From positions 2,398 to 66,397 of the forward strand of contig JACPGX010000002.1 in assembly GCA_016188865.1 (NCBI GenBank): a DNA stretch of 64,000 nt, given 5' to 3'. Source of the DNA: Candidatus Nealsonbacteria bacterium (lineage in GTDB: Bacteria; Patescibacteriota; Minisyncoccia; Minisyncoccales; MHMH01). The translations under genes were made by a program, and so were the position numbers. Below, piece by piece: positions 6,477 through 34,491 of the stretch; positions within the stretch are counted from its first letter, which is position 1, and the number at the start of each line of letters is the position of its first letter. A model generated the notes under the pieces. That model did not search any database and had not been told where the DNA came from. It saw nothing but the letters and a program-made list of their open reading frames with translations.

Positions 6477-7124
6477 TTATGGAAATTCTACGCGAGGACA
6501 ATACTTTTTGTAGAATACGTGCACCATTAAAGCAATGGTGTATATTATATCTTTAATTCCCCTAAATAATACCTTAAGAACTGTCCATGGCAAGAAAAGT
6601 ATCTTGCGAATGACGGATGATCGTCTCGGCTTTGCTTGTTTTGAGGCCGACACTGCCAGTCGTTTTTCATGTTTTCTCTGTTTTTCTTCTTCTTTTTCCA
6701 AATACCACCTTGTATGTTTAACTCTTTCGATCGCAAATGATATTGCAAACGGTAAACTGATAAATGCTATGACAGCGCCTAACCATATCAGCGTTTTCAG
6801 CCAATCTTCCCTTGCCAAAACTACTATCAAACCAAGGAGTGTCAATCCGACCAGCACATAAAACAACACTAGTAGAATTTTGCCCGTTACTCTCATCGGC
6901 TTGCTGCCAAAGAATCTGCGAGCGCGGCCTTGGCCGAAAACCAATCTGATGAGCCAGCCCAATAAAACAACCGGCAAACCGGGGACTATCCCCACAAAAG
7001 CTACCCAGAAGGGACCGCAGAAATTAGCCGGCCAAGGATGGGGAACCGTTGCGCCAAATCCTCCGGCAACAAATCTGTAAACTGCCCCGATAACGGCAAC
7101 TATCCAATCAGGAACTCTATGCAT
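6477..7124 (-). CDS. Hypothetical multi-pass membrane protein
   Basis: Several hydrophobic helices plus a K/E/R-rich segment. No recognisable family. Confidence 0.5.
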   Translation of the reverse strand: MHRVPDWIVAVIGAVYRFVAGGFGATVPHPWPANFCGPFWVAFVGIVPGLPVVLLGWLIRLVFGQGRARRFFGSKPMRVTGKILLVLFYVLVGLTLLGLIVVLAREDWLKTLIWLGAVIAFISLPFAISFAIERVKHTRWYLEKEEEKQRKHEKRLAVSASKQAKPRRSSVIRKILFLPWTVLKVLFRGIKDIIYTIALMVHVFYKKYCPRVEFP

Positions 7125-7192
7125 TTCTTGCTCCTCCTATATTATATTTATTACTAAGAAAGTGTACCAAAAAATAATAATTCTGTCAAGGT

Positions 7193-8344
7193 CTAAAGTT
7201 TGCCAACTAAAATATCTTTTCTGATTTTTTGCATTAAACCGAGAGTGAAATAAAGATTATGAATAGTGGCTAATCTATAATATAGGAGTTCTTTGGCTCT
7301 AAAAAGATGCGATAAATAAGCCCGGGTGAAATTTTGACAGGTATAACAACCGCACTTCTTCTCAATGGCATGGAAATCTTTAATATATCGGGAATTTCCT
7401 ATATTCAAGCGGCCATTTTTTATCAGTAAAGTTCCTCTTCTGGCTAATCTTGTGGGCCAGACGCAATCAAATAGATCCATACCGTGCTTTACGCAATTTT
7501 CCAAATCTTCCGGCCGGCCTATACCCAAAAGATGGCGAGGTTTTTCTTCAGGCAATAATGGCGTAATCCACTTTAAAATTTTAAACATGTCTTTTTGTGT
7601 TTTTCCCAAAGAACCGCCAATGCCAATGCCATCAAAAGGCAAGGATGAAATGAATTTAGTGCTTTCTTCTCTTAAATCTTTATACTCTCCGCCTTGGATT
7701 ATCCCAAACAAAGCCTGTTCCCGCTTTTTTTTAACCTTTAAGCACCGCAAGGCCCAATTATGCGTTTTTTTTAAAGATTTTTTAGTATATTCATAATCAG
7801 CTAAAGGAGAGGTGCATTCGTCAAAGGCAAAAATAATATCGGCTCCCAAATCTTCTTGTATTTTAATGGATTTTTCCGGAGTAAAAATATGCTTTGAGCC
7901 GTCTAAATGAGAGGTAAATTCTACGCCATCGTCAGTAATTTTTACCAATTTAAGAGGTCCGACCTCCCGAGGAGGTCGGACCTCCTCATATCCCGGAAAC
8001 CACCCAATTTTTCCTATCTGGTGTACCTTGCCCCAGCCTAAAGAAAAAACTTGAAAACCTCCGCTGTCAGTAACCATCGGTCCCGGCCAGTTCATGAATT
8101 TATGGAGCCCGCCGGCTTTTTTTATAACATCCGCTCCCGGTCTCAAATAAAGATGATAAGTATTGGCTAAAATAATTTCGGCTCCCAAATTTTTCAAGTC
8201 TTCGGGCGTTAAACTCTTAACGCTGGCTTGCGTAGCTACTGAAACAAAAGCAGGAGTTTCAATCCTGCCGTGAGGCGTCTCTAAAATACCAGCTCTCGCC
8301 CAAGACTTCTTAGATTTTTTAACAATTTTAAATCTAAATTGCAT
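7193..8344 (-). CDS. tgt: Queuine tRNA-ribosyltransferase (tRNA-guanine transglycosylase)
   Basis: TPAFVSVATQASVK, VTDSGGFQVFSL and the C-terminal Zn motif CGCYTC. Confidence 0.9.
   Translation of the reverse strand: MQFRFKIVKKSKKSWARAGILETPHGRIETPAFVSVATQASVKSLTPEDLKNLGAEIILANTYHLYLRPGADVIKKAGGLHKFMNWPGPMVTDSGGFQVFSLGWGKVHQIGKIGWFPGYEEVRPPREVGPLKLVKITDDGVEFTSHLDGSKHIFTPEKSIKIQEDLGADIIFAFDECTSPLADYEYTKKSLKKTHNWALRCLKVKKKREQALFGIIQGGEYKDLREESTKFISSLPFDGIGIGGSLGKTQKDMFKILKWITPLLPEEKPRHLLGIGRPEDLENCVKHGMDLFDCVWPTRLARRGTLLIKNGRLNIGNSRYIKDFHAIEKKCGCYTCQNFTRAYLSHLFRAKELLYYRLATIHNLYFTLGLMQKIRKDILVGKL
7954..7985. repeat. GC-rich palindromic element (short form), in-frame inside tgt
   Basis: GAGGTCCGACCTCC-cga-GGAGGTCGGACCTCC. 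Read on the minus strand it encodes EEVRPPREVGPLK. Confidence 0.85.
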
Positions 8345-9754
8345 TTAAATTCGAGGAAATAACGGCTGGCTTTTTTGCGTTTTCAATTGTTCTAAAATTT
8401 TTTCCGATGTTTTGGGCAAAAATGGTTCCAGTAATTTGGCTATTTCGCCTACGGCAAATAACAAATTGCCGATTACTTCTTTTTGGTTTTTGCTCTCTAC
8501 CCATGGTCTTTCTTTTTCAATATATTTATCGCACCAGCTAATTATTTCCCATATAGCCATCAACGCCTCATTAAACTCAAATCCATCAAGAAAACTATAG
8601 CATTCTTTTTGGGTTTTATTGATGAGTGATTTTAAATTTTTATTTGTAATTTTGGTTTTTGAATTTTTAATTTCTAATTTAGCAGCCATAGTAATAACTC
8701 TGGCAACGAGGTTACCCAGACCGCTTGCCAAATCGGCATTATATCTTCCCTCAAACTTTTCCTGTGTAAAGTCTCCGTCTTCCGTCGGCGGAATTTCCCG
8801 CAAAAGAAAATATCTTACTGCATCTGTTCCGTATTTTTTAATCAGTTCAAACGGGTCAACCACATTTCCCAACGACTTAGACATTTTCTGCCCGGCAACC
8901 GTAATAAAACCGTGGACAAAAATAGTTTTTGGCAAAGCTAATCCCAAAGATAAAAGCATTCCCGGCCAAATTAAAGAATGAAATTTTTGGATATCTTTGC
9001 CTATGCACTGGACATCTGCCGGCCAACGCCCGGGAGCGCCCGATAGATAATTTATTAACGCGTCAGCCCAAACATATATCGTTTGGGTTTCGTCGTCGGA
9101 AACTGGAATTCCCCACTTTAAATCTTTTCTGGGTCGCGAAAAACTGATATCCTCTAAACCATCTTTTAGGAAACTTAGCATCTCATTCTTTCTAGATGCG
9201 GGGATTATTTTAATTTTATCTTTCTTCAAAATTTCTTCAATATTTTTAGAATATTTTGAAAGCCGGAAAAAATAATTTTCTTCCTCCACAACTTCCGGTT
9301 CTTTCAAGTGAATGCGGCACCTTCCATCAATTAAATCTTTTTTCGTAATAAAAGCTTCGCAGCCCACGCAATACAAACCTTTATACTTTTTCTTATAAAT
9401 ATCTCCATTTTCCAGCAATTTTAACCATACCCCCTGAACTTTTGACCAATGTTTTTCCCTATCAGTGGTTCTGATAAAGTAGTCATTTGACAAATTAAAA
9501 ATTCTTGTCAATTCTCTAAATTTTTCAGAAACCATGTCAGTAAAATCTTCTGGAATTTTCCCGGCTTGCTCGGCAGCTTTTACCACTTTGGCTCCGTGTT
9601 CATCGGTGCCGGTTAAAAAGAAAACATCCTCGCCTAGAATACGGTGATATCTTGCTAAAACATCCGCTTGGACGATTTCCAATGCATATCCTAAATGCGG
9701 GAGAGCGTTGACATATGCTATGCTGGTTGTGATATAAAACTTTTTTCTTGCCAT
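8345..9754 (-). CDS. metG: Methionyl-tRNA synthetase (short form, no C-terminal tRNA-binding domain)
   Basis: HIGH-region variant NALPHLGYA, KMSKSLGN, and CxxC...C knuckle. Confidence 0.95.
   Translation of the reverse strand: MARKKFYITTSIAYVNALPHLGYALEIVQADVLARYHRILGEDVFFLTGTDEHGAKVVKAAEQAGKIPEDFTDMVSEKFRELTRIFNLSNDYFIRTTDREKHWSKVQGVWLKLLENGDIYKKKYKGLYCVGCEAFITKKDLIDGRCRIHLKEPEVVEEENYFFRLSKYSKNIEEILKKDKIKIIPASRKNEMLSFLKDGLEDISFSRPRKDLKWGIPVSDDETQTIYVWADALINYLSGAPGRWPADVQCIGKDIQKFHSLIWPGMLLSLGLALPKTIFVHGFITVAGQKMSKSLGNVVDPFELIKKYGTDAVRYFLLREIPPTEDGDFTQEKFEGRYNADLASGLGNLVARVITMAAKLEIKNSKTKITNKNLKSLINKTQKECYSFLDGFEFNEALMAIWEIISWCDKYIEKERPWVESKNQKEVIGNLLFAVGEIAKLLEPFLPKTSEKILEQLKTQKSQPLFPRI
8644..8678. 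repeat. Degenerate heptanucleotide tandem repeat inside metG
   Basis: ttgtaat tttggtt tttgaat ttttaat ttctaat. Encodes LEIKNSKTKITNKNLK. Confidence 0.5.
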
Positions 9755-17989: not shown

Positions 17990-18622
17990 TTATTCATGTA
18001 TCTTTATACTATACCATTCTGAGATATTTTTTAACAACACTAAATGATTGACCATGATTTTCAGTTTGAATAGAATATTCCAATCTTTTTTTAAAATTAA
18101 TTTAATAATTTTAGCGATATCGCAATCTACTTTTTTCCCCCGGACAGAGCATCCTGCAATATCGGGGTAATATCCCAAAATGGCGACTAGATTCCAAAAA
18201 AAATAATAATACATCAGCCTTAAATCATAAATCTTAAATCTTAAATCATTCATTTTACCTAAAACCTCGTTTAGGAGTTGCCAGATTTTTTCGTCTTTTT
18301 CTTCTTTGTGGGCCAATTCATCAAGAATTCTGACAATCCCATGAACAACATGCAATTTCCCCAAATTTCTTCTGATATTGATAAAGTTTTCTATCAAAAT
18401 AGCATCTGTAAGTGTTTTATGAGTTTTTCCCTGTATGAATTCAATTTCGGATAAATAAAAAAGCCCGGCGCCGCCTCTCAGCTTTGAGTTAATTTTTCTA
18501 ATTGCTTTTCCTAAAACTTTTATTTTCCCGAAATCTTCCGTATAAACAGTGAAAAGCTGATCCGCTTCTTTAAGATCAGCTTTTCTCAAAAAAATACCCC
18601 GAGTTCTGTAATGAACTGCCAT
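17990..18622 (-). CDS. recO: DNA repair protein RecO
   Basis: N-terminal OB-fold pattern typical of RecO (GIFLRKADLKEADQLFTVYTEDFGKIKVLGKAIRK). Confidence 0.8.
   Translation of the reverse strand: MAVHYRTRGIFLRKADLKEADQLFTVYTEDFGKIKVLGKAIRKINSKLRGGAGLFYLSEIEFIQGKTHKTLTDAILIENFINIRRNLGKLHVVHGIVRILDELAHKEEKDEKIWQLLNEVLGKMNDLRFKIYDLRLMYYYFFWNLVAILGYYPDIAGCSVRGKKVDCDIAKIIKLILKKDWNILFKLKIMVNHLVLLKNISEWYSIKIHE
18221..18248. repeat. Heptanucleotide tandem repeat (TAAATCW x4) inside recO
   Basis: taaatca taaatct taaatct taaatca. Encodes NDLRFKIYDLRL. Confidence 0.85.
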
Positions 18623-18636
18623 GAATTTTTATTAAG

Positions 18637-19074
18637 CTAAAATCCCTTCTTCCATTGTTCGAACACTTTTATCTTATCCTCCAGCGCCTTTTTTTCTTTA
18701 AAAGTTTTGGCATACATCTTTTCTTTTTTCATTTTACCTAAAACAGCATTAAGTTTTTCTGATGAAAGGCCGTATGTTTGGCCCATCTTTTTGGCTCTTG
18801 TCTGCAGTTCCTGTATCATGCCCACTCTTTGTTTCTGCCCAAGTTTTCTGAAGGTGCCGGGTATGGGGGCATAGGGAGCCTTCCTGGCAAATTGTCTTAA
18901 CTCCAAAAAACTCTTATACGTCTTTCCACCGAAAAGACCTTTTGACTGGGGCGCAGCTTGTGGTTTTGGCTCTAGTTTGGGCGCAGGTCTTGTTATCCCC
19001 AACCTCTCAAATATGCTGGATACCGCTGGTTTCTGTGGAGAGGGGCTTGGTTTTGGCGCAAATGGCATGGGCAT
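18637..19074 (-). CDS. Hypothetical protein (Pro-rich N-terminus, basic C-terminus)
   Basis: 145-aa ORF in an operon-like position between ileS and recO. No family recognised. Confidence 0.4.
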   Translation of the reverse strand: MPMPFAPKPSPSPQKPAVSSIFERLGITRPAPKLEPKPQAAPQSKGLFGGKTYKSFLELRQFARKAPYAPIPGTFRKLGQKQRVGMIQELQTRAKKMGQTYGLSSEKLNAVLGKMKKEKMYAKTFKEKKALEDKIKVFEQWKKGF

Positions 19075-19098: not shown

Positions 19099-22000
19099 TT
19101 ATAATTTCTTCACCGCAAGACTAAGTTTTTGCCGATCAACATTTATTTCCTTCTCGCCTTTACCCGGCTTAAAATCCTTAGCCTTAATTTCAGATAAAAT
19201 AAACTTTTTATTTTTACCTAAAATTCTATTTAATTCTGACGCACCGGAATACTGGACAAAAATTTTATCTTTTGGCTTAAAGCCGGCTTCCTTTCTCATC
19301 TCATTAATCTGGCGAATAACTTCTCGAATAATTCCCTCTTCTTTAAGCTCTGGGGTAATTTTCGTATCCAATATTAAAATATTGCTGAAAATAATTTTCT
19401 TGACGTTAACTTCTTCTTTTATGAACTCTGATAAACCTTTCTCCATTTTCTCGGGAATCACAAGAGAAGTTAGGGGTTGGCGAACTTTTATGCCAGTCTT
19501 AGCTCTTTCGGCCAAGGCCAAAGCCACAATTTCCCTGACCCTCGTCATTTTCTGATTTAATTTTTTATTAATCAATTTTTTATTAGCCTTGGGCCAATCA
19601 GCCAAGTGGATACTGCGAGAACGCTTCTCGTAATGACGAGAAACGTTCTCGTAAATTTGCTCGGAGAGGAAAGGAATAAAGGGGGCGGTTAATTTTGAAA
19701 CCGTTTGAAGAACCAAGGTCAGAGTGCCGACAGCTTCGTTAAAACGCTTGCGCGACCTTCTGATATACCACAAAGACAGATCGTTAACCACAAAATCTTC
19801 AATAGCTCTGGCCGCTCCTGTTACGTCGTATTTATCAAGATTATAAGTAGTTTCTGCAATTAACTCATTTAATCGGGAAACCACCCACTTATCTAATAAG
19901 TTTTTAGTTTTTAGTTTATAGTTTGTAGTTTTAATATTATAAGTTTTGTAGAAAGTAAAACAATTCCACAAAATCAAAATAAACTTTTTCAAAGCTTGGT
20001 CTATGTCTTTTTCTGTAAAAAGTTTTGAATCGCCGGACTGATTAACTGTGTAAAAATACCACCTAACAGCGTCGGCGCCATATTTTTCAACAATATACCA
20101 AGGGTCAACGACATTGCCCCTTGATTTTGACATTTTCTCTCCTTTCTCGTCTAAAACATGGCCAGTAGAAATTACATTTTTATAGGGCGCGCCTTTTCCC
20201 AAAAGTGTGGAAACCGCCAAAAGTGTATAGAACCAGCCGCGAGTCTGATCGATAGCCTCTGAAATATAATCAGCTGGAAATATGGCTCCGGAAGCGAACG
20301 GCATACTGCCCGAATCAAACCAAACATCGCAAACTTCCGAAACCCTTGCCATTTTTTCTCCGCATTTAGAGCAATAGAATTTAATTTCATCTATATAAGG
20401 CCGATGAAAATCAACCCTCCCCTCTTTATCCAGGGGTAAATTTTTAAAATCCAGCTTGCGCCACTCTCCGGTCTTTATGTCTTTTTTAGCTAATTTTATT
20501 TTCAATAATTTTTCGTCAGACAAACCCTTGACTGCTCCTTCTAAAAGCCACAATGGATCGCAATGGCTGACAATTAAAATAGTTTTATTTTTATGCTTTT
20601 GATCAATATCGCTTATAAAGCTCATCATTCTTTTTCTAACTTCGCCCCAATTTTCCCCGCCTTCGGGCTTTCTCCCGTAAAAACTGTCTACGCTTTTCGG
20701 AAAATCTTTAAAATATTTTTCTTTCTTTTTACCCTGATAAATGCCAAAATTCATATCTCTTAAGCGCATATCAGAAATTATTTCTGCGCCAAGTTCTTCA
20801 TTAACGAGCTGGGCTGTCTGACGGGTTCTGTTCATATCTGAAAAATAAATTATATCTATTTTCTTTATTTTAAGTTCTTTAGCGGCTTTTCTTACATCGC
20901 TCTCCCCACCCTTGCTTAATAATATGGGACTTTTTTCCGGCCAAGGATAAATATAATCTCCATTATTAACCTGATGGTTATTTTGGCCGTGCCGCATAAT
21001 ATAATATTTATTGGCTGAAAATTTTTGACCCAATAAATCATTTTTACCACCGATAACTTCCTTGAGCCCGCAACTCTGACAGCTCCAAATCGGCAAAGGT
21101 GTTCCCCAATATCTCTCTCGGGAAAAAGCCCAATCTTTCAGTTCTTTTAGCCACTCGCCGAATCTCCCGTCTTTTAAATGCGAGGGCACCCAATTGATTT
21201 TTTGGTTGTTGCCGATCAGGTCTTTTTTTACGTCCTGCATTTTTATAAACCAGCTCTCTTTGGCGTAATAAAGAAGCGGCGATTTGCAGCGCCAGCAGAA
21301 AGGATAATCATGCTCGTATAATTCTTCTTTAAAAAGAACTCCCCTCTCCTGCAGGTCTTTAATAATCAACGGGTCCGCATCTTTAACAAACATTTCATTC
21401 CACTCATAATCCGGCGTTATCATTTTGCCTTCTTCATTAACGGTCACTAATACTGGCAAATTATTCTCTTTTCCTACCTTCATATCATCCTCGCCAAAAG
21501 CCGGAGCAATATGCACCAAACCTGTACCGTCTTCCATGGAAACAAAATCGCCGGCAACTACGCGATATTTCGATGTCCGACCTCCCGACAAATCTGACGG
21601 GAGATCGGACATCCCAAATATCCGTTCATATTCTAATCCAATTAAGTCCCTACCCTTAAATTCTCCAACGATTTCTCCAACTATGCCGACTGGCTTCATT
21701 CTATCTTTAGCTAAAATCAGATATTCCTCACCAACTTTTATTTTTACATAAGTAAATTCCGGGTTTACCGCTACCGCAACATTCCCGGGCAAAGTCCAGG
21801 GCGTCGTCGTCCACACGAGCAAAGAAGAGTCCTTGAATTTTAAATTTTTAATCTTAAATCTTACATAAATTGAATTTTCTTCAATTCTTTTGTACCCCTG
21901 CGCCACTTCATGGGAAGACAAACTTGTCCCACACCTCGGACAATACGGCACTACTTTGTAATCTTTGTACAAAAGCCCTTTTTGATAAATTTGTTTTACT

Positions 22001-22467
22001 ATCCACCATAAAGTTTCGATATATTCATTTTCATAGGTGACATAAGGGTGCTCCATATCTAACCAATAGCCAATCCTTTCGGTTAATTTCTCCCAATCTC
22101 GCTTGTATTGCCAAACCGATTCTTTGCATTGCTTATTGAATTCAGCGATACCATATCTTTCAATGTCTTTTTTATTTTTTAAGCCCAGCTTTTTCTCAAC
22201 TTCCAGTTCTACGGGCAAACCATGGGTATCCCAGCCGGCTTTTCTCAAAACCCTAAAACCCTGCATGGTCTTATAGCGGCAAATAATATCTTTGAAGGCG
22301 CGGCTTAAAACATGATGAATACCCGGCTTCCCATTAGCCGTCGGCGGTCCCTCGTAAAACACAAAATCCCGCGCCCTAGCGCGCTGTTTGATGCTTTTCT
22401 CAAAAATCTTCTTTTCTTTCCAGAACTTCAATATCTCTTCTTCTTTCTGGGAAAAATTTAACTCCAT
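19099..22467 (-). CDS. ileS: Isoleucyl-tRNA synthetase (type 2) with an inserted histidine-phosphatase domain
   Basis: HIGH (PPTANGKPGIHHVLSR), KMSKS, editing-domain TTPWTLPGN and WFDSG motifs. A PGAM-type domain sits at about aa 486-686 (YIMRHGQ ... IVSHCDPL). Confidence 0.95.
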   Translation of the reverse strand: MELNFSQKEEEILKFWKEKKIFEKSIKQRARARDFVFYEGPPTANGKPGIHHVLSRAFKDIICRYKTMQGFRVLRKAGWDTHGLPVELEVEKKLGLKNKKDIERYGIAEFNKQCKESVWQYKRDWEKLTERIGYWLDMEHPYVTYENEYIETLWWIVKQIYQKGLLYKDYKVVPYCPRCGTSLSSHEVAQGYKRIEENSIYVRFKIKNLKFKDSSLLVWTTTPWTLPGNVAVAVNPEFTYVKIKVGEEYLILAKDRMKPVGIVGEIVGEFKGRDLIGLEYERIFGMSDLPSDLSGGRTSKYRVVAGDFVSMEDGTGLVHIAPAFGEDDMKVGKENNLPVLVTVNEEGKMITPDYEWNEMFVKDADPLIIKDLQERGVLFKEELYEHDYPFCWRCKSPLLYYAKESWFIKMQDVKKDLIGNNQKINWVPSHLKDGRFGEWLKELKDWAFSRERYWGTPLPIWSCQSCGLKEVIGGKNDLLGQKFSANKYYIMRHGQNNHQVNNGDYIYPWPEKSPILLSKGGESDVRKAAKELKIKKIDIIYFSDMNRTRQTAQLVNEELGAEIISDMRLRDMNFGIYQGKKKEKYFKDFPKSVDSFYGRKPEGGENWGEVRKRMMSFISDIDQKHKNKTILIVSHCDPLWLLEGAVKGLSDEKLLKIKLAKKDIKTGEWRKLDFKNLPLDKEGRVDFHRPYIDEIKFYCSKCGEKMARVSEVCDVWFDSGSMPFASGAIFPADYISEAIDQTRGWFYTLLAVSTLLGKGAPYKNVISTGHVLDEKGEKMSKSRGNVVDPWYIVEKYGADAVRWYFYTVNQSGDSKLFTEKDIDQALKKFILILWNCFTFYKTYNIKTTNYKLKTKNLLDKWVVSRLNELIAETTYNLDKYDVTGAARAIEDFVVNDLSLWYIRRSRKRFNEAVGTLTLVLQTVSKLTAPFIPFLSEQIYENVSRHYEKRSRSIHLADWPKANKKLINKKLNQKMTRVREIVALALAERAKTGIKVRQPLTSLVIPEKMEKGLSEFIKEEVNVKKIIFSNILILDTKITPELKEEGIIREVIRQINEMRKEAGFKPKDKIFVQYSGASELNRILGKNKKFILSEIKAKDFKPGKGEKEINVDRQKLSLAVKKL
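19901..19935. repeat. Heptanucleotide tandem repeat (TTTNTAG-like x5) inside ileS
   Basis: tttttag tttttag tttatag tttgtag ttttaat. Encodes YNIKTTNYKLKTKNL. Confidence 0.75.
21572..21613. repeat. Palindromic element (diverged full-length copy), in-frame inside ileS
   Basis: GATGTCCGACCTCCCGACAAATCTGACGGGAGATCGGACATC. Encodes MSDLPSDLSGGRTS on the minus strand. Confidence 0.8.
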
Positions 22468-22573: not shown

Positions 22574-23068
22574 TTACTTGCGAAGAAAACGGAAGACCAA
22601 TAATCTGTCGGAATCAAAAAAATTGTTAGAAAATATTAAACCGCTACTGAGCCAAAATATCGAAACATCGCGCTCCATGCAGAATATGCCTCGGCGACCA
22701 TACGGATCGTCAGGAATAAGAATCGGTTCCATGGCGATTGGCAACCAGTCGTTTTTAGGCTGGTCTGGATACTGCTCGCGCAGAGCGGGGCCAACTTCGC
22801 TTGGGCATCTTTGAAGGCCATTCTCTAGAGCGCAATTGCAAATGACATCAAAGTGCGCATATCCTTCAAGGCCCAGTTCCCGACTCGTCGCAAGCACCAA
22901 ATCCACCTCTATCGCTTCTTGACTAATCGGAATTTTATCGAAAAACTGATCAGCGTGGTAGTAGCGAATGCGATACTTCCTGCCCCTGAGGACCCTGCGG
23001 TACTCCTCGGATGATTTATGAAGGCCGAGCTTGATTGTTCTCCAAATCTTGAATTTGGAAGTTATCAT
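22574..23068 (-). CDS. Conserved hypothetical protein (visibly GC-richer than its neighbours)
   Basis: 164-aa ORF with GGAGG RBS. The segment ELGLEGYAHFDVICNCALENGLQRCPSEVGPALREQYPDQPKNDWLPIAMEPI resembles a widespread uncharacterised family that I cannot name. Confidence 0.5.
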   Translation of the reverse strand: MITSKFKIWRTIKLGLHKSSEEYRRVLRGRKYRIRYYHADQFFDKIPISQEAIEVDLVLATSRELGLEGYAHFDVICNCALENGLQRCPSEVGPALREQYPDQPKNDWLPIAMEPILIPDDPYGRRGIFCMERDVSIFWLSSGLIFSNNFFDSDRLLVFRFLRK

Positions 23069-23160
23069 TAACGTTTCCTCCTTTCAAAGAGCAACTTTAA
23101 CTTTAAAATGATAGCATATTCTAATTTTTCTATCAAATTATTTTAGTATAAAAACTAAAT

Positions 23161-23194
23161 ACGTATGAATTAAACTATGGTTTTTTTCATACGT
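23161..23194. promoter_or_regulatory. CCATGG-type long palindrome (copy L1), abutting the stop of the PaaX-like gene
   Basis: ACGTATGAATTAAACTATGGTTTTTTTCATACGT, with outer arms ACGTATGAA / TTCATACGT. Confidence 0.6.
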
Positions 23195-23196
23195 AA

Positions 23197-23769
23197 TTAT
23201 ATTTTAAAAATTTCCCTTAGAAAATCATCATTTTCTATATTCTCGGCGGTGATTAAACGAACTTCGCGCTGTCCCAACCCAAAGAACTCCCTCAATAACT
23301 CTACCTCATCTTTGCAGGGATAAGGATTAATCCAAACGCTTTTCTGCAAAGGCAAAAAACCTAATTCCCTTAATTTTCCCCTGAAAGCATTCCGTTGTAG
23401 ATTTTTAAGCTGAATGATATCAAAAATTACTATTCGCCATTTTTTATCCCATTTTTTCGGCTTATTTATATTCAAACTGTCAATTTGAAACCTGCCGGCC
23501 AATTTTCTCCCTTTTTCCGTCAAAGAAATATAAATTTGATGATTTTTATTTATAATTTTAATACATCCTTGCCTTCTAAGATTATAAAAGGTGTCGGAAA
23601 CTTTTTTCGCTTTATACTTGTCTTTATTTTGAAATCCTTTAATAATATTCGTGGCAAAATGGGGAGAGGTAGCAGCGATGCAAACCGCACCGGCAACGGC
23701 CAGCCACTTAAAAACATCTTTGGTGATTTCTGATTTCGGTTTTCTAAAATAATATTTATATTTACTCAT
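23197..23769 (-). CDS. PaaX-like / Cas2-fold domain protein with N-terminal hydrophobic segment and wHTH-like middle (paralogue 1)
   Basis: KWRIVIFDI...LRNAFRGKLRELGF.PLQKSVWINPY resembles the Cas2-like ferredoxin-fold core of PaaX-family proteins. Paralogue at 62063..62635. Confidence 0.6.
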   Translation of the reverse strand: MSKYKYYFRKPKSEITKDVFKWLAVAGAVCIAATSPHFATNIIKGFQNKDKYKAKKVSDTFYNLRRQGCIKIINKNHQIYISLTEKGRKLAGRFQIDSLNINKPKKWDKKWRIVIFDIIQLKNLQRNAFRGKLRELGFLPLQKSVWINPYPCKDEVELLREFFGLGQREVRLITAENIENDDFLREIFKI

Positions 23770-23901: not shown

Positions 23902-25413
23902 CTACATTTTCTCCGGAGCGGAAATACCCATAAGAGAAAGGGTATTCTTTAAAACGATTTGGGTTGCTAACGACAGGGCTAAGCGGGCTTGAGTTAAATT
24001 TTTATCCTCGGAAATCACGTGGCAATCTCTGTAAAATTGATGGAAAACAGTCGCTAACTCCATTGCGTATTGAGGCAACCTTTGAAGCTGGTAATCCTTG
24101 GCAGTATCTTCAATAACTTCCGGCAATTTAATCAGCTGTTTAATTAAATCCAATTCACTTGCATGCGTTAATAATTTCACGTTTTCGGATTTCGGATTTC
24201 GGATTTCGGATTTCGCCAAAATACTGCATATTCTTGCGTGAGCGTATTGAACATAATATACCGGGTTTTTCTCCGACTGCTCTTTTGCCAAATCCAAATC
24301 AAAATTCAAATGGCTGTCATGGCTGCGGGTTAAAAAAAAGAATCGGGCAACATCCAATGAAACTTCTTCGATAAGTTCATCAATAGTTACGAATACTCCA
24401 GTCCTTTTAGACATTTTAACTTCTTTGCCAGCCTCAATTAACCTTACTAACTGATAGACAATCGGAGTAATTTTTTCTTTATCATATCCTAATGCCTGTG
24501 CTGCGGCCTTCAAGCGAGGGACGTAGCCGTGATGCTCTGCCCCTAAAAAAATTACTAACCAATCAAATCCTCTTCCAAATTTATTTTTTAAATAAGCGAT
24601 GTCAGAAAGGAAATAAGTTTCTTCTTCATAGGTCGTTTTCTTTTCCGCCCTAACCAAAACTCGATCTTTATCGTCGCCAAATTCCGTAGATTTAAACCAA
24701 ATAGCTCCATCTTTTTCATAAACAAGGCCTTTTTTCTTTAAAAAACCGGAAACTTGTTTTGCTTCTTTGGGATATAAAGATGTTTCATAAAACCATTTGT
24801 CAAATTTAATTCCCATTATTTTTGCCGTATTTTCTATTTTTTTAACAATATACTTTACTGCTTTATCAATGTCTTTTTCGCCTTTTTTAATCAACTTTTC
24901 GGTATATTCATTTTTATAGCCCTGCTTTCCCTCAAGAGTATCCTGCAGAACCTTAATTTGCCTGCCCCGGTCGTTAACATAGTATTCACGCCAAACCCTG
25001 TATCCGGCTTTATTAAAAACATTGGCTAAAACATCTCCGCAAAAGCCGCCTCGCGCATTGCCAACGTGAAGAGGGCCGGTAGGATTGGCTGAAATAAATT
25101 CCACGTTTACTTTTTTATTTTGGCCAATTTTTAAATTACCGAAATTATTTTTTTGTTTTAAAATTTCTCTGACCTGCTTTTGCAGATACTCTTTGGAAAT
25201 AAAAAAGTTAATGAAGCCGGGGCCGGCTGCTTCAACTTTTTCAAAAAGATTGGATTTCAGTTTGTTGATTATTTCTTTCGGGTCTTTTTTTAATCTAAAG
25301 GCGATGTTGGTTGAATAATCTCCATATTTTTTATCTTCCGGAGTTTCCAGTCTGACATCCTCTTCTCCGGTTGCTTTTTGAACCAATTTTACTATTTCTT
25401 GACGTATCATCAC
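23902..25413 (-). CDS. argS: Arginyl-tRNA synthetase
   Basis: SANPTGPLHVGNARG (HIGH region), the MSKRTG variant of KMSKS, and C-terminal YVQYAHARICSI. Confidence 0.95.
   Translation of the reverse strand: MMIRQEIVKLVQKATGEEDVRLETPEDKKYGDYSTNIAFRLKKDPKEIINKLKSNLFEKVEAAGPGFINFFISKEYLQKQVREILKQKNNFGNLKIGQNKKVNVEFISANPTGPLHVGNARGGFCGDVLANVFNKAGYRVWREYYVNDRGRQIKVLQDTLEGKQGYKNEYTEKLIKKGEKDIDKAVKYIVKKIENTAKIMGIKFDKWFYETSLYPKEAKQVSGFLKKKGLVYEKDGAIWFKSTEFGDDKDRVLVRAEKKTTYEEETYFLSDIAYLKNKFGRGFDWLVIFLGAEHHGYVPRLKAAAQALGYDKEKITPIVYQLVRLIEAGKEVKMSKRTGVFVTIDELIEEVSLDVARFFFLTRSHDSHLNFDLDLAKEQSEKNPVYYVQYAHARICSILAKSEIRNPKSENVKLLTHASELDLIKQLIKLPEVIEDTAKDYQLQRLPQYAMELATVFHQFYRDCHVISEDKNLTQARLALSLATQIVLKNTLSLMGISAPEKM
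24183..24217. repeat. Heptanucleotide tandem repeat (TTTCGGA x4 plus 1 degenerate unit) inside argS
   Basis: tttcgga x4 then tttcgcc. Encodes AKSEIRNPKSEN. The same unit occurs in the archease gene. Confidence 0.9.
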
Positions 25414-33686: not shown

Positions 33687-34136
33687 ATGAAATCGCTTGC
33701 GGAAAATAAAAAAGCGTATTTTAATTATGAAATTCTGGAAAGATTCGAAGCCGGGATGGTTTTGACCGGACAAGAAGTAAAATCAATCAAATCGGGCAGG
33801 ATAAACTTGGCTGGCTCTTATGTGGTTATAAAAAACGAAGAGGCTTTTTTGCTTAATGCCGACATCCCGCCGTATCAGCCGAAAAACGCGCCGCCCGATT
33901 ACGATTCCACTCGCCTGAGAAAACTGCTTTTAAATAAATCGGAAATTAAATACCTTATCGGCAAATCGCAGGAAAAGCGCTTGACTTTAATACCCCTTAA
34001 GGTATATACTAAGAAAGGTAAAATTAAGCTGGAATTCGGATTAGCTAAGGGCAGACAAAAAGCGAGTAAAAAAGAATTATTGAAAAAAAGAGATGTCAGG
34101 AGAGAGATAGAAATCGAATTAAAAACAAGGGGGTGA
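33687..34136 (+). CDS. smpB: SsrA-binding protein
   Basis: NKKAYFNYEILE...GQEVKSIK.GR.NL..SY and a basic C-terminal tail. Confidence 0.9.
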   Translation: MKSLAENKKAYFNYEILERFEAGMVLTGQEVKSIKSGRINLAGSYVVIKNEEAFLLNADIPPYQPKNAPPDYDSTRLRKLLLNKSEIKYLIGKSQEKRLTLIPLKVYTKKGKIKLEFGLAKGRQKASKKELLKKRDVRREIEIELKTRG

Positions 34137-34457
34137 ATTGCTTCGACAGAAATCTGAGCCAAAATCTGCAAACCTGTCCCGCTCAGCGGGATAATAAAAT
34201 AAGCGCCAACTTATTCAAACAACCTGCTTACGCTTTAGCGTAAGCCATCCAAACCGTTGATTCTCGATAGGTGGCAAGGGTGTTATATTATCGAGATTAG
34301 GCAGCCAGATTGTTTCGACTGGCCGCCAAAATTAAGAAACTAGGAATAAGGGAATTTTGTCTGCTTCATATCCCCTATTCTAAATGGCAAAACAGACTAA
34401 ATTTGTAGACGATTTTTGGCGAAATTTCTGGATTGGGGTTCAAACCCCACACCTCCA
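34129..34457 (+). ncRNA. ssrA: tmRNA (SsrA), one-piece. Tag reading frame 34205-34243 encodes ANLFKQPAYALA-stop
   Basis: 5' GGGGGTGAATTGCTTCGAC. 3' T-arm GGGGTTCAAACCCC, then acceptor strand CACCTCC and discriminator A. The acceptor pairs with the 5' end through a G3:U wobble. No ORF of 60 aa or more in 34137-34383. CCA is not encoded. Confidence 0.85.
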
Positions 34458-34491
34458 CACTTCGACAAAGCTCAGTGTAAACACAACCAAC

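Follow-up and report, generated by a model that had tools for sequence, protein, structure and literature searches.

A histidine phosphatase domain nested in the CP3 loop of isoleucyl-tRNA synthetase in Patescibacteria

Aminoacyl-tRNA synthetases are among the best-studied enzymes, and the chemistries known for them are activation, transfer and editing. Their editing modules are found either inserted in the synthetase or as free proteins, including CP1 of Ile/Val/LeuRS, the INS domain of ProRS versus YbaK/ProX, the editing domain of AlaRS versus AlaX, and the split pair ThrRS-cat/ThrRS-ed. We analysed a stretch of 64,000 nucleotides from a Candidatus Nealsonbacteria genome (contig JACPGX010000002.1 of assembly GCA_016188865.1; the whole stretch is called the window below), in which the isoleucyl-tRNA synthetase (IleRS) gene, ileS, encodes a composite protein with a complete histidine phosphatase domain nested in its CP3 zinc-knuckle loop. 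A comparison with the editing modules shows that in both cases a hydrolytic domain is placed in a class I Rossmann fold, and that related lineages carry it either within the synthetase or as a protein of its own. Fold and chemistry are different: the editing modules hydrolyse aminoacyl esters, whereas the phosphatase would hydrolyse phosphomonoesters via a phospho-histidine. By analogy, the editing modules are the closest functional counterpart of the phosphatase. To our knowledge, no phosphorylated error product is known in isoleucylation.

Two families in NCBIfam provide precedents for parts of this arrangement. NF040702 ('ileS_w_GNAT') combines IleRS with an extra enzyme, an acetyltransferase, and is without phosphatase; the window protein scores 314 against its cutoff of 1999. 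NF005567, the bifunctional RNase H/acid phosphatase of the Rv2228c type, has a CobC/PhoE-like phosphatase fused to a nucleic-acid enzyme. That fusion is end-to-end, whereas the window insert is nested, and only the phosphatase half of the family matches (74 bits, cutoff 326). Full-text literature searches gave no account of a histidine phosphatase inside or alongside an aminoacyl-tRNA synthetase, in agreement with a first-pass annotation of this DNA that had called the arrangement undescribed. Both the sequences and their Pfam labels have been public for years, and many of the composite proteins are named by NCBI merely 'class I tRNA ligase family protein'.

The ileS gene occupies positions 19099-22467 of the window, stop codon included, on the minus strand, as do all its parts named below. 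It is an open reading frame (ORF) of 1122 residues, and an identical protein (P0112) is found in an NCBI 'Candidatus Nealsonbacteria' metagenome-assembled genome on a 196-kb contig. The host protein is a bona fide type-2, Thermus-like IleRS. Pfam identifies tRNA-synt_1 (6.9e-112), Anticodon_1 and DUF5915, and the NCBIfam model TIGR00392 (ileS) is matched at equivalog level with 905.3 bits (cutoff 621.4), over two stretches that the insert separates. The best match in the PDB is Thermus thermophilus IleRS (1ile, E=1.2e-259), in which residues 7-477 align to residues 2-479 of the window IleRS and residues 488-821 to residues 685-993. The N-part (residues 1-479, aligned to Thermus 7-477; 21031-22467) contains the Rossmann N-half with GIHH, the core zinc site C176/C179 and C391/C394, the CP1 editing domain with an intact motif WTTTPWTLPGN (W219-TTTPW-224), CP2 and the start of CP3. 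The C-part (residues 686-1122, aligned to Thermus 488-821; 19102-20412) contains the end of CP3, the second Rossmann half with DVWFDSG, DQTRGW and KMSKS (residues 778-782; 20122-20136, intact), the anticodon-binding domain and the C-terminal DUF5915 domain. These signature motifs and the zinc cysteines are invariant or nearly so in 86 homologs. Thus the window IleRS shares the full domain set, the motifs, both zinc sites and DUF5915 with the type-2 enzymes (Thermus/eukaryote-like, MupA/MupB-like), and differs from them by a second enzyme in CP3 and by GIHH in place of HIGH. A second ileS is absent from the 64-kb window.

The altered HIGH signature (residues 49-52; 22312-22323) is GxHH and not HxGH. 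In the composite IleRS its G49, H51 and H52 hardly vary, and one locus (L010, copy 1) has HYGT instead. The GxHH of the composite enzymes resembles the altered motif reported for hyper-mupirocin-resistant IleRS2.

The insert separates the two zinc knuckles of CP3. The first knuckle (WSCQSCG, C463 and C466; 21070-21081) corresponds to C461/C464 of the Thermus enzyme and the second (FYCSKCG, C699 and C702; 20362-20373) to C502/C504, in the numbering of the 1ile alignment, and both are invariant in the 86 homologs. Between them the window IleRS has 232 residues versus 37 in an ordinary type-2 IleRS; in the 1ile alignment the insert places about 205 residues where Thermus has about 10. The domain itself covers residues 486-673 (20449-21012). 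It is joined to the synthetase by a linker of residues 480-485 on the N-side (GQKFSA; 21013-21030) and of residues 674-685 on the C-side (DFKNLPLDKEGR; 20413-20448). The patterns '..QK-F(S/T)x' and '(F/Y)xxxP(Y/L/H)Nxx.E' of the two linkers are homologous across all embedded clades. The first-pass annotation had placed a complete phosphatase domain between the two knuckles, where other IleRS have a short linker, and had taken the frame and the synthetase motifs as intact. All of this agrees with the alignment and with the profile scans. The zinc motif of CP3 has been described for Thermus IleRS, with CP3 as a variable, peripheral subdomain (PMC7191050), which could plausibly take insertions.

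The junctions of the insert read QKFSA/NKYY and EGRV/DFHRPY. No flanking repeats, splice-junction residues of an intein or endonuclease are found at the insert, and its G+C content (0.34-0.37) is inside the range of the gene (0.32-0.45). A 16-nucleotide near-perfect inverted repeat with 14 paired bases is centred on the N-terminal junction (21006-21038), where the gene background for such repeats has a mean of 5.8 and a maximum of 9 paired bases. As a conserved RNA hairpin it was rejected: it is absent from 51 other embedded loci and is not part of the design.

His_Phos_1 (PF00300) is found in the whole protein at residues 489-662 (E=3.6e-33; 115.3 bits, cutoff 21.7), and it is the sole Pfam family in the interval 20410-21012 taken alone (9.6e-35, 120.4 bits). 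In the AlphaFold model of the full-length protein the domain, about 188 residues nested between the two halves of the class I catalytic domain, has a predicted local distance difference test score (pLDDT) of 90-97. Modelled alone it gives a confident phosphatase fold with pLDDT 94.2 and a predicted template modelling (TM) score of 0.90. A Foldseek comparison with phosphatases of 200 residues gives probability 1.00, TM scores of 0.70-0.77 and root-mean-square deviations of 2.7-3.7 Å at 20-28% identity. The best PDB neighbours are 4ij5, 1h2e, 4qih, 9mmh, 6nru and 6s2q, and their classes are PspA, PhoE, glucosyl-3-phosphoglycerate phosphatase, the riboflavin-pathway HFP, CobC and mycobacterial hydrolases. 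PhoE (1h2e/1ebb), PspA (4ij5), GpgP Rv2419c (4qih), HFP (9mmh) and CobC (6nru) are like the insert in fold, in their length of about 200 residues and in the catalytic set RHG/R/E(D)/H. They are free-standing metabolic enzymes, while the insert, with the low identity just given, is embedded in or coupled to a synthetase.

The domain is a member of the phosphatase branch within branch 1 of the histidine phosphatase superfamily and not a phosphoglycerate mutase. The label 'PGAM-type' given to it in the first-pass annotation was too specific. The cutoffs of the dPGM models are all missed (77 versus 225 for dPGM_arch, 35.9 versus 81.7 for TIGR01258 pgm_1, 25-28 versus 305-401 for PRK14115-like models). 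The 240-250 residues of the mutases, with cap and C-terminal tail, are not matched by the domain of about 188 residues or by free proteins of 187-195 residues, and mutase structures of 240 residues fit only at 5-7.6 Å. The phosphatase equivalogs of NCBIfam are also not reached (CobC, TIGR03162, 77.7 versus 162.9; PspA, NF045917, 72.4 versus 350). Since the domain is under every NCBIfam equivalog cutoff, no substrate is transferable from these models.

The residues of the catalytic site can be followed through 120 embedded domains and 108 free homologs. The RHG motif is formed by R492, the nucleophile H493 and G494 (20986-20994), with R492 and H493 present in all 120 embedded forms and in 107 and 105 of the free ones, respectively. 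The second arginine of the phosphate pocket, R547 in NRTRQTA (20827-20829), and the second catalytic histidine, H635 in VSHCDP (20563-20565), are found in 120/120 and 108/108. At the general acid position, D571 in RLRDMNFG (20755-20757) and Glu in canonical members, solely Glu or Asp is observed (65 E and 55 D embedded, 67 E and 41 D free). In addition, S543, G575 and R613 are invariant in the embedded forms and essentially so in the free ones, and G604 and E605 are conserved across both arrangements (228 sequences). These motifs had been quoted in the first-pass annotation and are real; the residue numbers assigned to them were slightly shifted. The domain as a whole diverges faster than the body of IleRS, with a mean identity to the window of 47% versus 63-79%. 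A catalytic set that is fixed in a fast-changing domain argues for selection and not for recency, and the insert is apparently a catalytically competent phosphatase, as predicted from these residues.

Appended domains of synthetases are often non-catalytic. A pseudo-enzyme here, kept for its structure or for binding phosphate or tRNA and serving to stabilise CP3 or to provide one more contact with RNA, would suit this habit of synthetases and the faster divergence of the domain body. We consider it highly improbable: the five catalytic positions together with S543, G575, G604, E605 and R613 are essentially invariant in both arrangements, and binding alone would hardly restrict the acid position to E or D. 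The catalytic histidine is indeed lost where a copy truly degenerates. In the second IleRS copy at locus L010, a degenerate paralog, RHG is changed to RPG, and KMSKS and CP1 are lost together with it.

The composite IleRS is a genuine, long-established and widely conserved architecture. The 120 best whole-protein homologs, drawn from NCBI, JGI, ENA and Logan assemblies, are 58-76% identical to the window protein and 1103-1246 residues long, and every one of them carries both PF00133 and PF00300. A HMMER search of 1.84 billion cluster representatives (50% identity) with a junction-spanning query, residues 440-740, gives 210 representatives at E<=1e-30; in about 135 of the best 150 the match runs without a break over both CP3 flanks and the insert. 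A profile scan of the GTDB species-representative genomes identifies at least 441 confirmed relatives. In the best-scoring 80 of these loci, a sample whose proportions are indicative only, the phosphatase is embedded in 58, is a free gene directly 5' of ileS in 18, and is a free gene with no ileS seen in 4; at one of the last four the contig stops 50 nucleotides past the phosphatase gene. Thus the same module is observed in cis and, in adjacent position, in trans. The lineages among the GTDB matches listed are Nealson-, Colwell-, Lipton-, Harrison-, Yanofsky-, Terry-, Kaiser-, Staskawicz- and Magasanikbacteria, Spechtbacterales, Paceibacterota and Minisyncoccales. At NCBI, the Parcubacteria group includes Nealson- and Magasanikbacteria. 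Many third-party assemblies in the scan are labelled 'Saccharibacteria', a label that we take as generic because their IleRS group with that of the window.

An artefact or a selfish insertion, either a chimeric assembly or an intein-like or mobile element in one contig, had to be considered at the start. A homolog search with the insert only gave nothing but free proteins of about 190 residues (best identity 54%), and the contig index lacks the exact protein. The reading as a singleton or chimera that such a list suggests was overturned by the whole-protein search, and the insert-only list had evidently passed over long proteins owing to candidate selection. With an identical protein in NCBI, 119 further homologs of the same architecture and two surveys, GTDB and cluster representatives, in agreement, the chance of an artefact is practically negligible. 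The insert is also a single copy that co-diverges with IleRS, with composition inside the gene range and without direct repeats, intein junction residues or endonuclease. The first-pass annotation was correct to regard it as a true domain insertion, and neither of the outcomes it had named as refuting, a missing His_Phos_1 match or a chimeric assembly, applies.

Two sets of proteins from these searches were set aside. Proteins of 650-700 residues looked like a split IleRS with an N-half and a phosphatase-C-half; they start with a non-Met residue or with 'MRHG' at scattered positions, and are therefore fragments at contig ends. P0031 (245 residues, ENA) is 68% identical in its C-terminal half to part of the insert, including 'YFSDMNRTRQTA'. 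The N-terminal half, rich in alanine, is unrelated and the end is abnormal, so a chimeric contig or a mis-called ORF from a close relative is more likely than a fragment of a composite IleRS.

The free proteins of about 190 residues pair end to end with the insert, from 'N-x-Y-(F/Y)-I-L-R-H-G' to the C-terminal 'G-E-L-R-K-L', and are 50-54% identical to it. In three independent genomes the free gene is found between argS and an ileS without insert. The IleRS there has 942-965 residues and an ordinary short CP3 loop, and the copy at L003 is 65% identical to the window IleRS outside the insert. The gene order in the free-form genomes is smpB, argS, phosphatase, ileS, a small ORF, recO, a DUF7619 protein and a class II synthetase. 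The same order is observed around the window ileS save for the separate phosphatase gene, with argS upstream (23902-25413, minus strand; identified by Pfam and by synteny in L001-L004) and recO downstream (17990-18622, minus strand; RecO_N/RecO_C, in the same order in L001, L003, L004 and L085). A second copy of the phosphatase is absent from the 64-kb window. The stop of the free gene overlaps the start of ileS (ATGA or ATGAATAA) or is separated from it by 0-16 nucleotides, an arrangement typical of translational coupling. The free gene next to ileS is also present, with an intact catalytic set, in the cultured Minisyncoccus archaeiphilus PMX.108, and the description paper of this organism does not mention the arrangement. 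On its record NZ_AP038758.1 the phosphatase gene covers 401860-402447 and ileS 402444-405404. Taken together, comparison of the loci shows one phosphatase family kept with the synthetase, in CP3 in most lineages or as an apparently coupled gene of 190 residues in others. The survey of related genomes proposed by the first-pass annotation thus finds the insertion across related genomes and the free coupled form in sister lineages.

By the trees, the two arrangements have interconverted several times. In an IleRS tree made without the insert (74 sequences, 897 columns), 6-7 changes between embedded and free are found in 100/100 bootstraps and two large free clades never unite; the phosphatase tree has 4-10 such changes. 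Distances among the phosphatases co-vary with those among the IleRS (Mantel r=0.41; maximum of 500 permutations 0.22), which indicates that the two proteins are inherited together. Because the insertion point is the same in all embedded forms and the linkers flanking it are homologous, we infer that they descend from one ancient insertion, and the free forms would be several secondary extractions. A scar of this kind is observed in free clade A, where 'ELKKRA-VSG/PHRPW' stands against 'EMISKA-VSD[domain]..EIE/PHRPY' in its embedded sister L024 (the slash marks the site). It is possible that the internal domain became an upstream gene by tandem duplication followed by reciprocal degeneration, and tandem duplication of a composite ileS does occur. 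Differential loss from an ancestor with two copies, one free and one embedded, is not supported: a free copy upstream of an embedded one is found at none of the loci, and the phosphatase tree does not fall into two clean clades.

The tandem duplication is that of L010, where a full composite IleRS (L010:4531-8073) is followed by the degenerate paralog of 1009 residues (L010:8092-11121). The paralog has no CP1 editing domain, LLSFS in place of KMSKS and RPG in place of RHG. Its overall architecture is kept, and it looks like a pseudo-synthetase.

Further architectures place the phosphatase at other sites. Two phosphatase domains in one IleRS are found in P0373, P0375 and P0364, with both copies in tandem in CP3, and in P0371 and P0347. 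The second copy is located after the second zinc knuckle in P0371 and between the catalytic core and the anticodon-binding domain in P0347, and RHG is retained in each copy. P0373 is identical in two independent assemblies (L086:1228-5634 and L087:2069-6475), as is P0371 (L089:1711-4974 and L090:1570-4833); P0347 is known from one contig (L088:1932-6191). We count the IleRS with two phosphatases as additional independent acquisitions. In P0372 (L085:6001-8070; ENA ERZ27256796, k141_1091711) the C-terminus of ArgRS, '...GIFAPEHM', runs in-frame into the phosphatase 'FNNSYFFLRHG'. From these arrangements the phosphatase is recurrently tethered to IleRS, in a partnership that is not exclusive to IleRS. 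P0371 stops before the anticodon-binding domain. P0278 (1066 residues) is IleRS-like, with an IS200-type transposase domain in its N-part, a His_Phos domain and a C-terminal GNAT domain replacing the C-half of IleRS, and is probably a disrupted or chimeric gene.

From residue conservation and gene arrangement, we consider it probable that the phosphatase is a dedicated, catalytically active accessory module of the synthetase, embedded in it or coupled to it. The phosphatase would serve the synthetase as a hydrolytic module at 1:1 stoichiometry and close range. In the proposed mechanism, H493 would attack a phosphomonoester held by R492, R547 and H635 in a two-step phospho-histidine reaction, the acidic residue at position 571 (Asp or Glu) would protonate the leaving group, and the phospho-enzyme would then be hydrolysed.

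The main alternative explanation is that an ordinary housekeeping phosphatase, of broad PhoE-like specificity or of the phosphoserine type, resides in the argS-ileS-recO block with a chemistry unrelated to tRNA charging. It would have been fused into a tolerant loop of an essential, constitutively expressed gene in streamlined genomes, and the fusion would only secure its expression. The nearest structures and profile models are indeed small-molecule phosphatases, CP3 is variable and peripheral (PMC7191050), and the synteny of the block is so stable that adjacency may last without selection. What speaks against this explanation is the position of the domain, since neutral fusions of neighbours are normally end-to-end and this phosphatase sits inside an essential enzyme. 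The domain is furthermore retained over hundreds of species-level lineages, it is duplicated in IleRS and placed at two further internal sites, and it co-diverges with IleRS, with no second copy in the window. The extracted phosphatase is re-coupled by overlapping stop and start directly 5' of ileS in at least five separate lineages. We therefore regard the passenger explanation as rather unlikely.

Several points weigh against a dedicated module and some of them suit the passenger explanation directly. The end-to-end fusion with ArgRS is found in a locus without ileS: the block at L085 consists of smpB, argS::phosphatase and recO onward, with ileS missing. A few free copies, three or four, sit away from ileS. 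That the free gene lies next to ileS may in part be a relic of extraction and does not prove coupling independently. The trees were built by neighbour joining from p-distances or BLOSUM distances and have short internal branches; better models, or recombination, could alter how many switches are counted and in which direction they run. Parts of the Rossmann fold are poorly predicted in the full-length model, with pLDDT 31-49 for residues 25-84. Finally, all functional claims are drawn from conservation and gene arrangement.

The fusion with ArgRS argues against a substrate specific to isoleucine and thus favours one common to class I charging. Tentatively, the substrate may be a nucleotide-type phosphomonoester, either a blocking 2'/3'-phosphate on the CCA end of tRNA or a phosphorylated adenine nucleotide. 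The first-pass annotation had suggested phosphorylated nucleotides, alarmones or a moonlighting regulatory function as possible roles. The candidate targets would be a 2'/3'-phosphate or pyrophosphate that RNases or toxins leave on the CCA end, a phosphorylated adenine nucleotide, or a phosphate installed on the synthetase by a toxin. It is conceivable, at best as a working idea, that the phosphatase strips a blocking phosphate so that charging proceeds, as a repair or gate-keeping step and an extra activity of class I synthetases in Parcubacteria. The unlinked free copies adjoin a MazG-like nucleoside triphosphate pyrophosphohydrolase (L044:6602-6952) and an NYN-domain RNase with a PD-(D/E)XK nuclease (L064:5377-5877 and 6591-7361). 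Such nucleotide and nucleic-acid enzymes as neighbours may be a weak hint to the substrate.

The third of these targets leads to a special case of the accessory module, in which the domain would be a protein phosphatase that reverses inhibitory phosphorylation of IleRS or ArgRS and acts as a built-in immunity. HipA/HipT-like kinase toxins target class I synthetases (GltX, TrpS), and the histidine phosphatase superfamily includes the protein phosphatases SixA, PGAM5 and Sts-1. A stoichiometric tether to the putative target and the link to two class I synthetases would suit a protector acting in cis, and SixA (TIGR00249) is weakly matched at 1.7e-06. The nearest relatives by sequence and fold are small-molecule phosphatases and not SixA or PGAM5, no conserved kinase is found in the neighbourhood of the examined loci, and we know of no phosphorylation of IleRS. 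PADLOC gives no defence match, with 0 families for the insert, for the homolog P0005 and for the M. archaeiphilus protein. We rank this special case second among the candidate roles and give it only a small chance. A defence-system or phage origin of the domain was rejected on the lack of a PADLOC match; the sole PHROG match is a generic family of unknown function.

Some further features of the block and of the window are recorded here. Directly 3' of ileS there is a small basic ORF of 105-145 residues without Pfam match (window 18637-19074, minus strand; L001:11481-11873; L003:11434-11751), whose start abuts the stop of ileS in L001 and L003. It was set aside as a conserved partner, being only 20-32% identical between loci and without a Pfam match. 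Between argS and ileS the window has two extra minus-strand ORFs (22574-23769), and in the related loci examined the slot is without them. They encode a PaaX_M protein of 190 residues (Cas2-like domain) and a protein of 164 residues without Pfam match, the latter in a stretch with a G+C content of 0.46-0.51 versus about 0.33-0.40 around. This may be a local insertion. At L035 two free phosphatase genes stand in tandem (L035:6001-6525 and L035:6578-7150) and the contig ends 50 nucleotides on. Elsewhere in the window are a class I synthetase-like ORF of 469 residues (8345-9754, minus strand), 29% identical to the C-part of IleRS, and a tmRNA gene (34129-34458, plus strand) with the tag peptide ANLFKQPAYALA.

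The composite IleRS is a synthetase with an acquired accessory catalytic domain, which is phylogenetically broad and would come as a real surprise to synthetase specialists. A second, unrelated and apparently active enzyme inside IleRS may imply an uncharacterised phosphate-removal step linked to tRNA charging. If the phosphatase does serve the synthetase, the repeated embedding, duplication and re-coupling to IleRS, and to ArgRS, would reflect strong selection for its chemistry at the synthetase. By their alternation, the fused and the unfused form amount to a natural Rosetta-stone experiment and single out a specific partner pair, and since the free form is present in M. archaeiphilus, the only cultured member, the question is directly testable. 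The locus is also a clear case of the insertion of one enzyme into another and of its reversal, which bears on domain gain and loss in streamlined genomes and on annotation. The architecture is conserved over much of the Patescibacteria, a group that makes up a large share of bacterial diversity.

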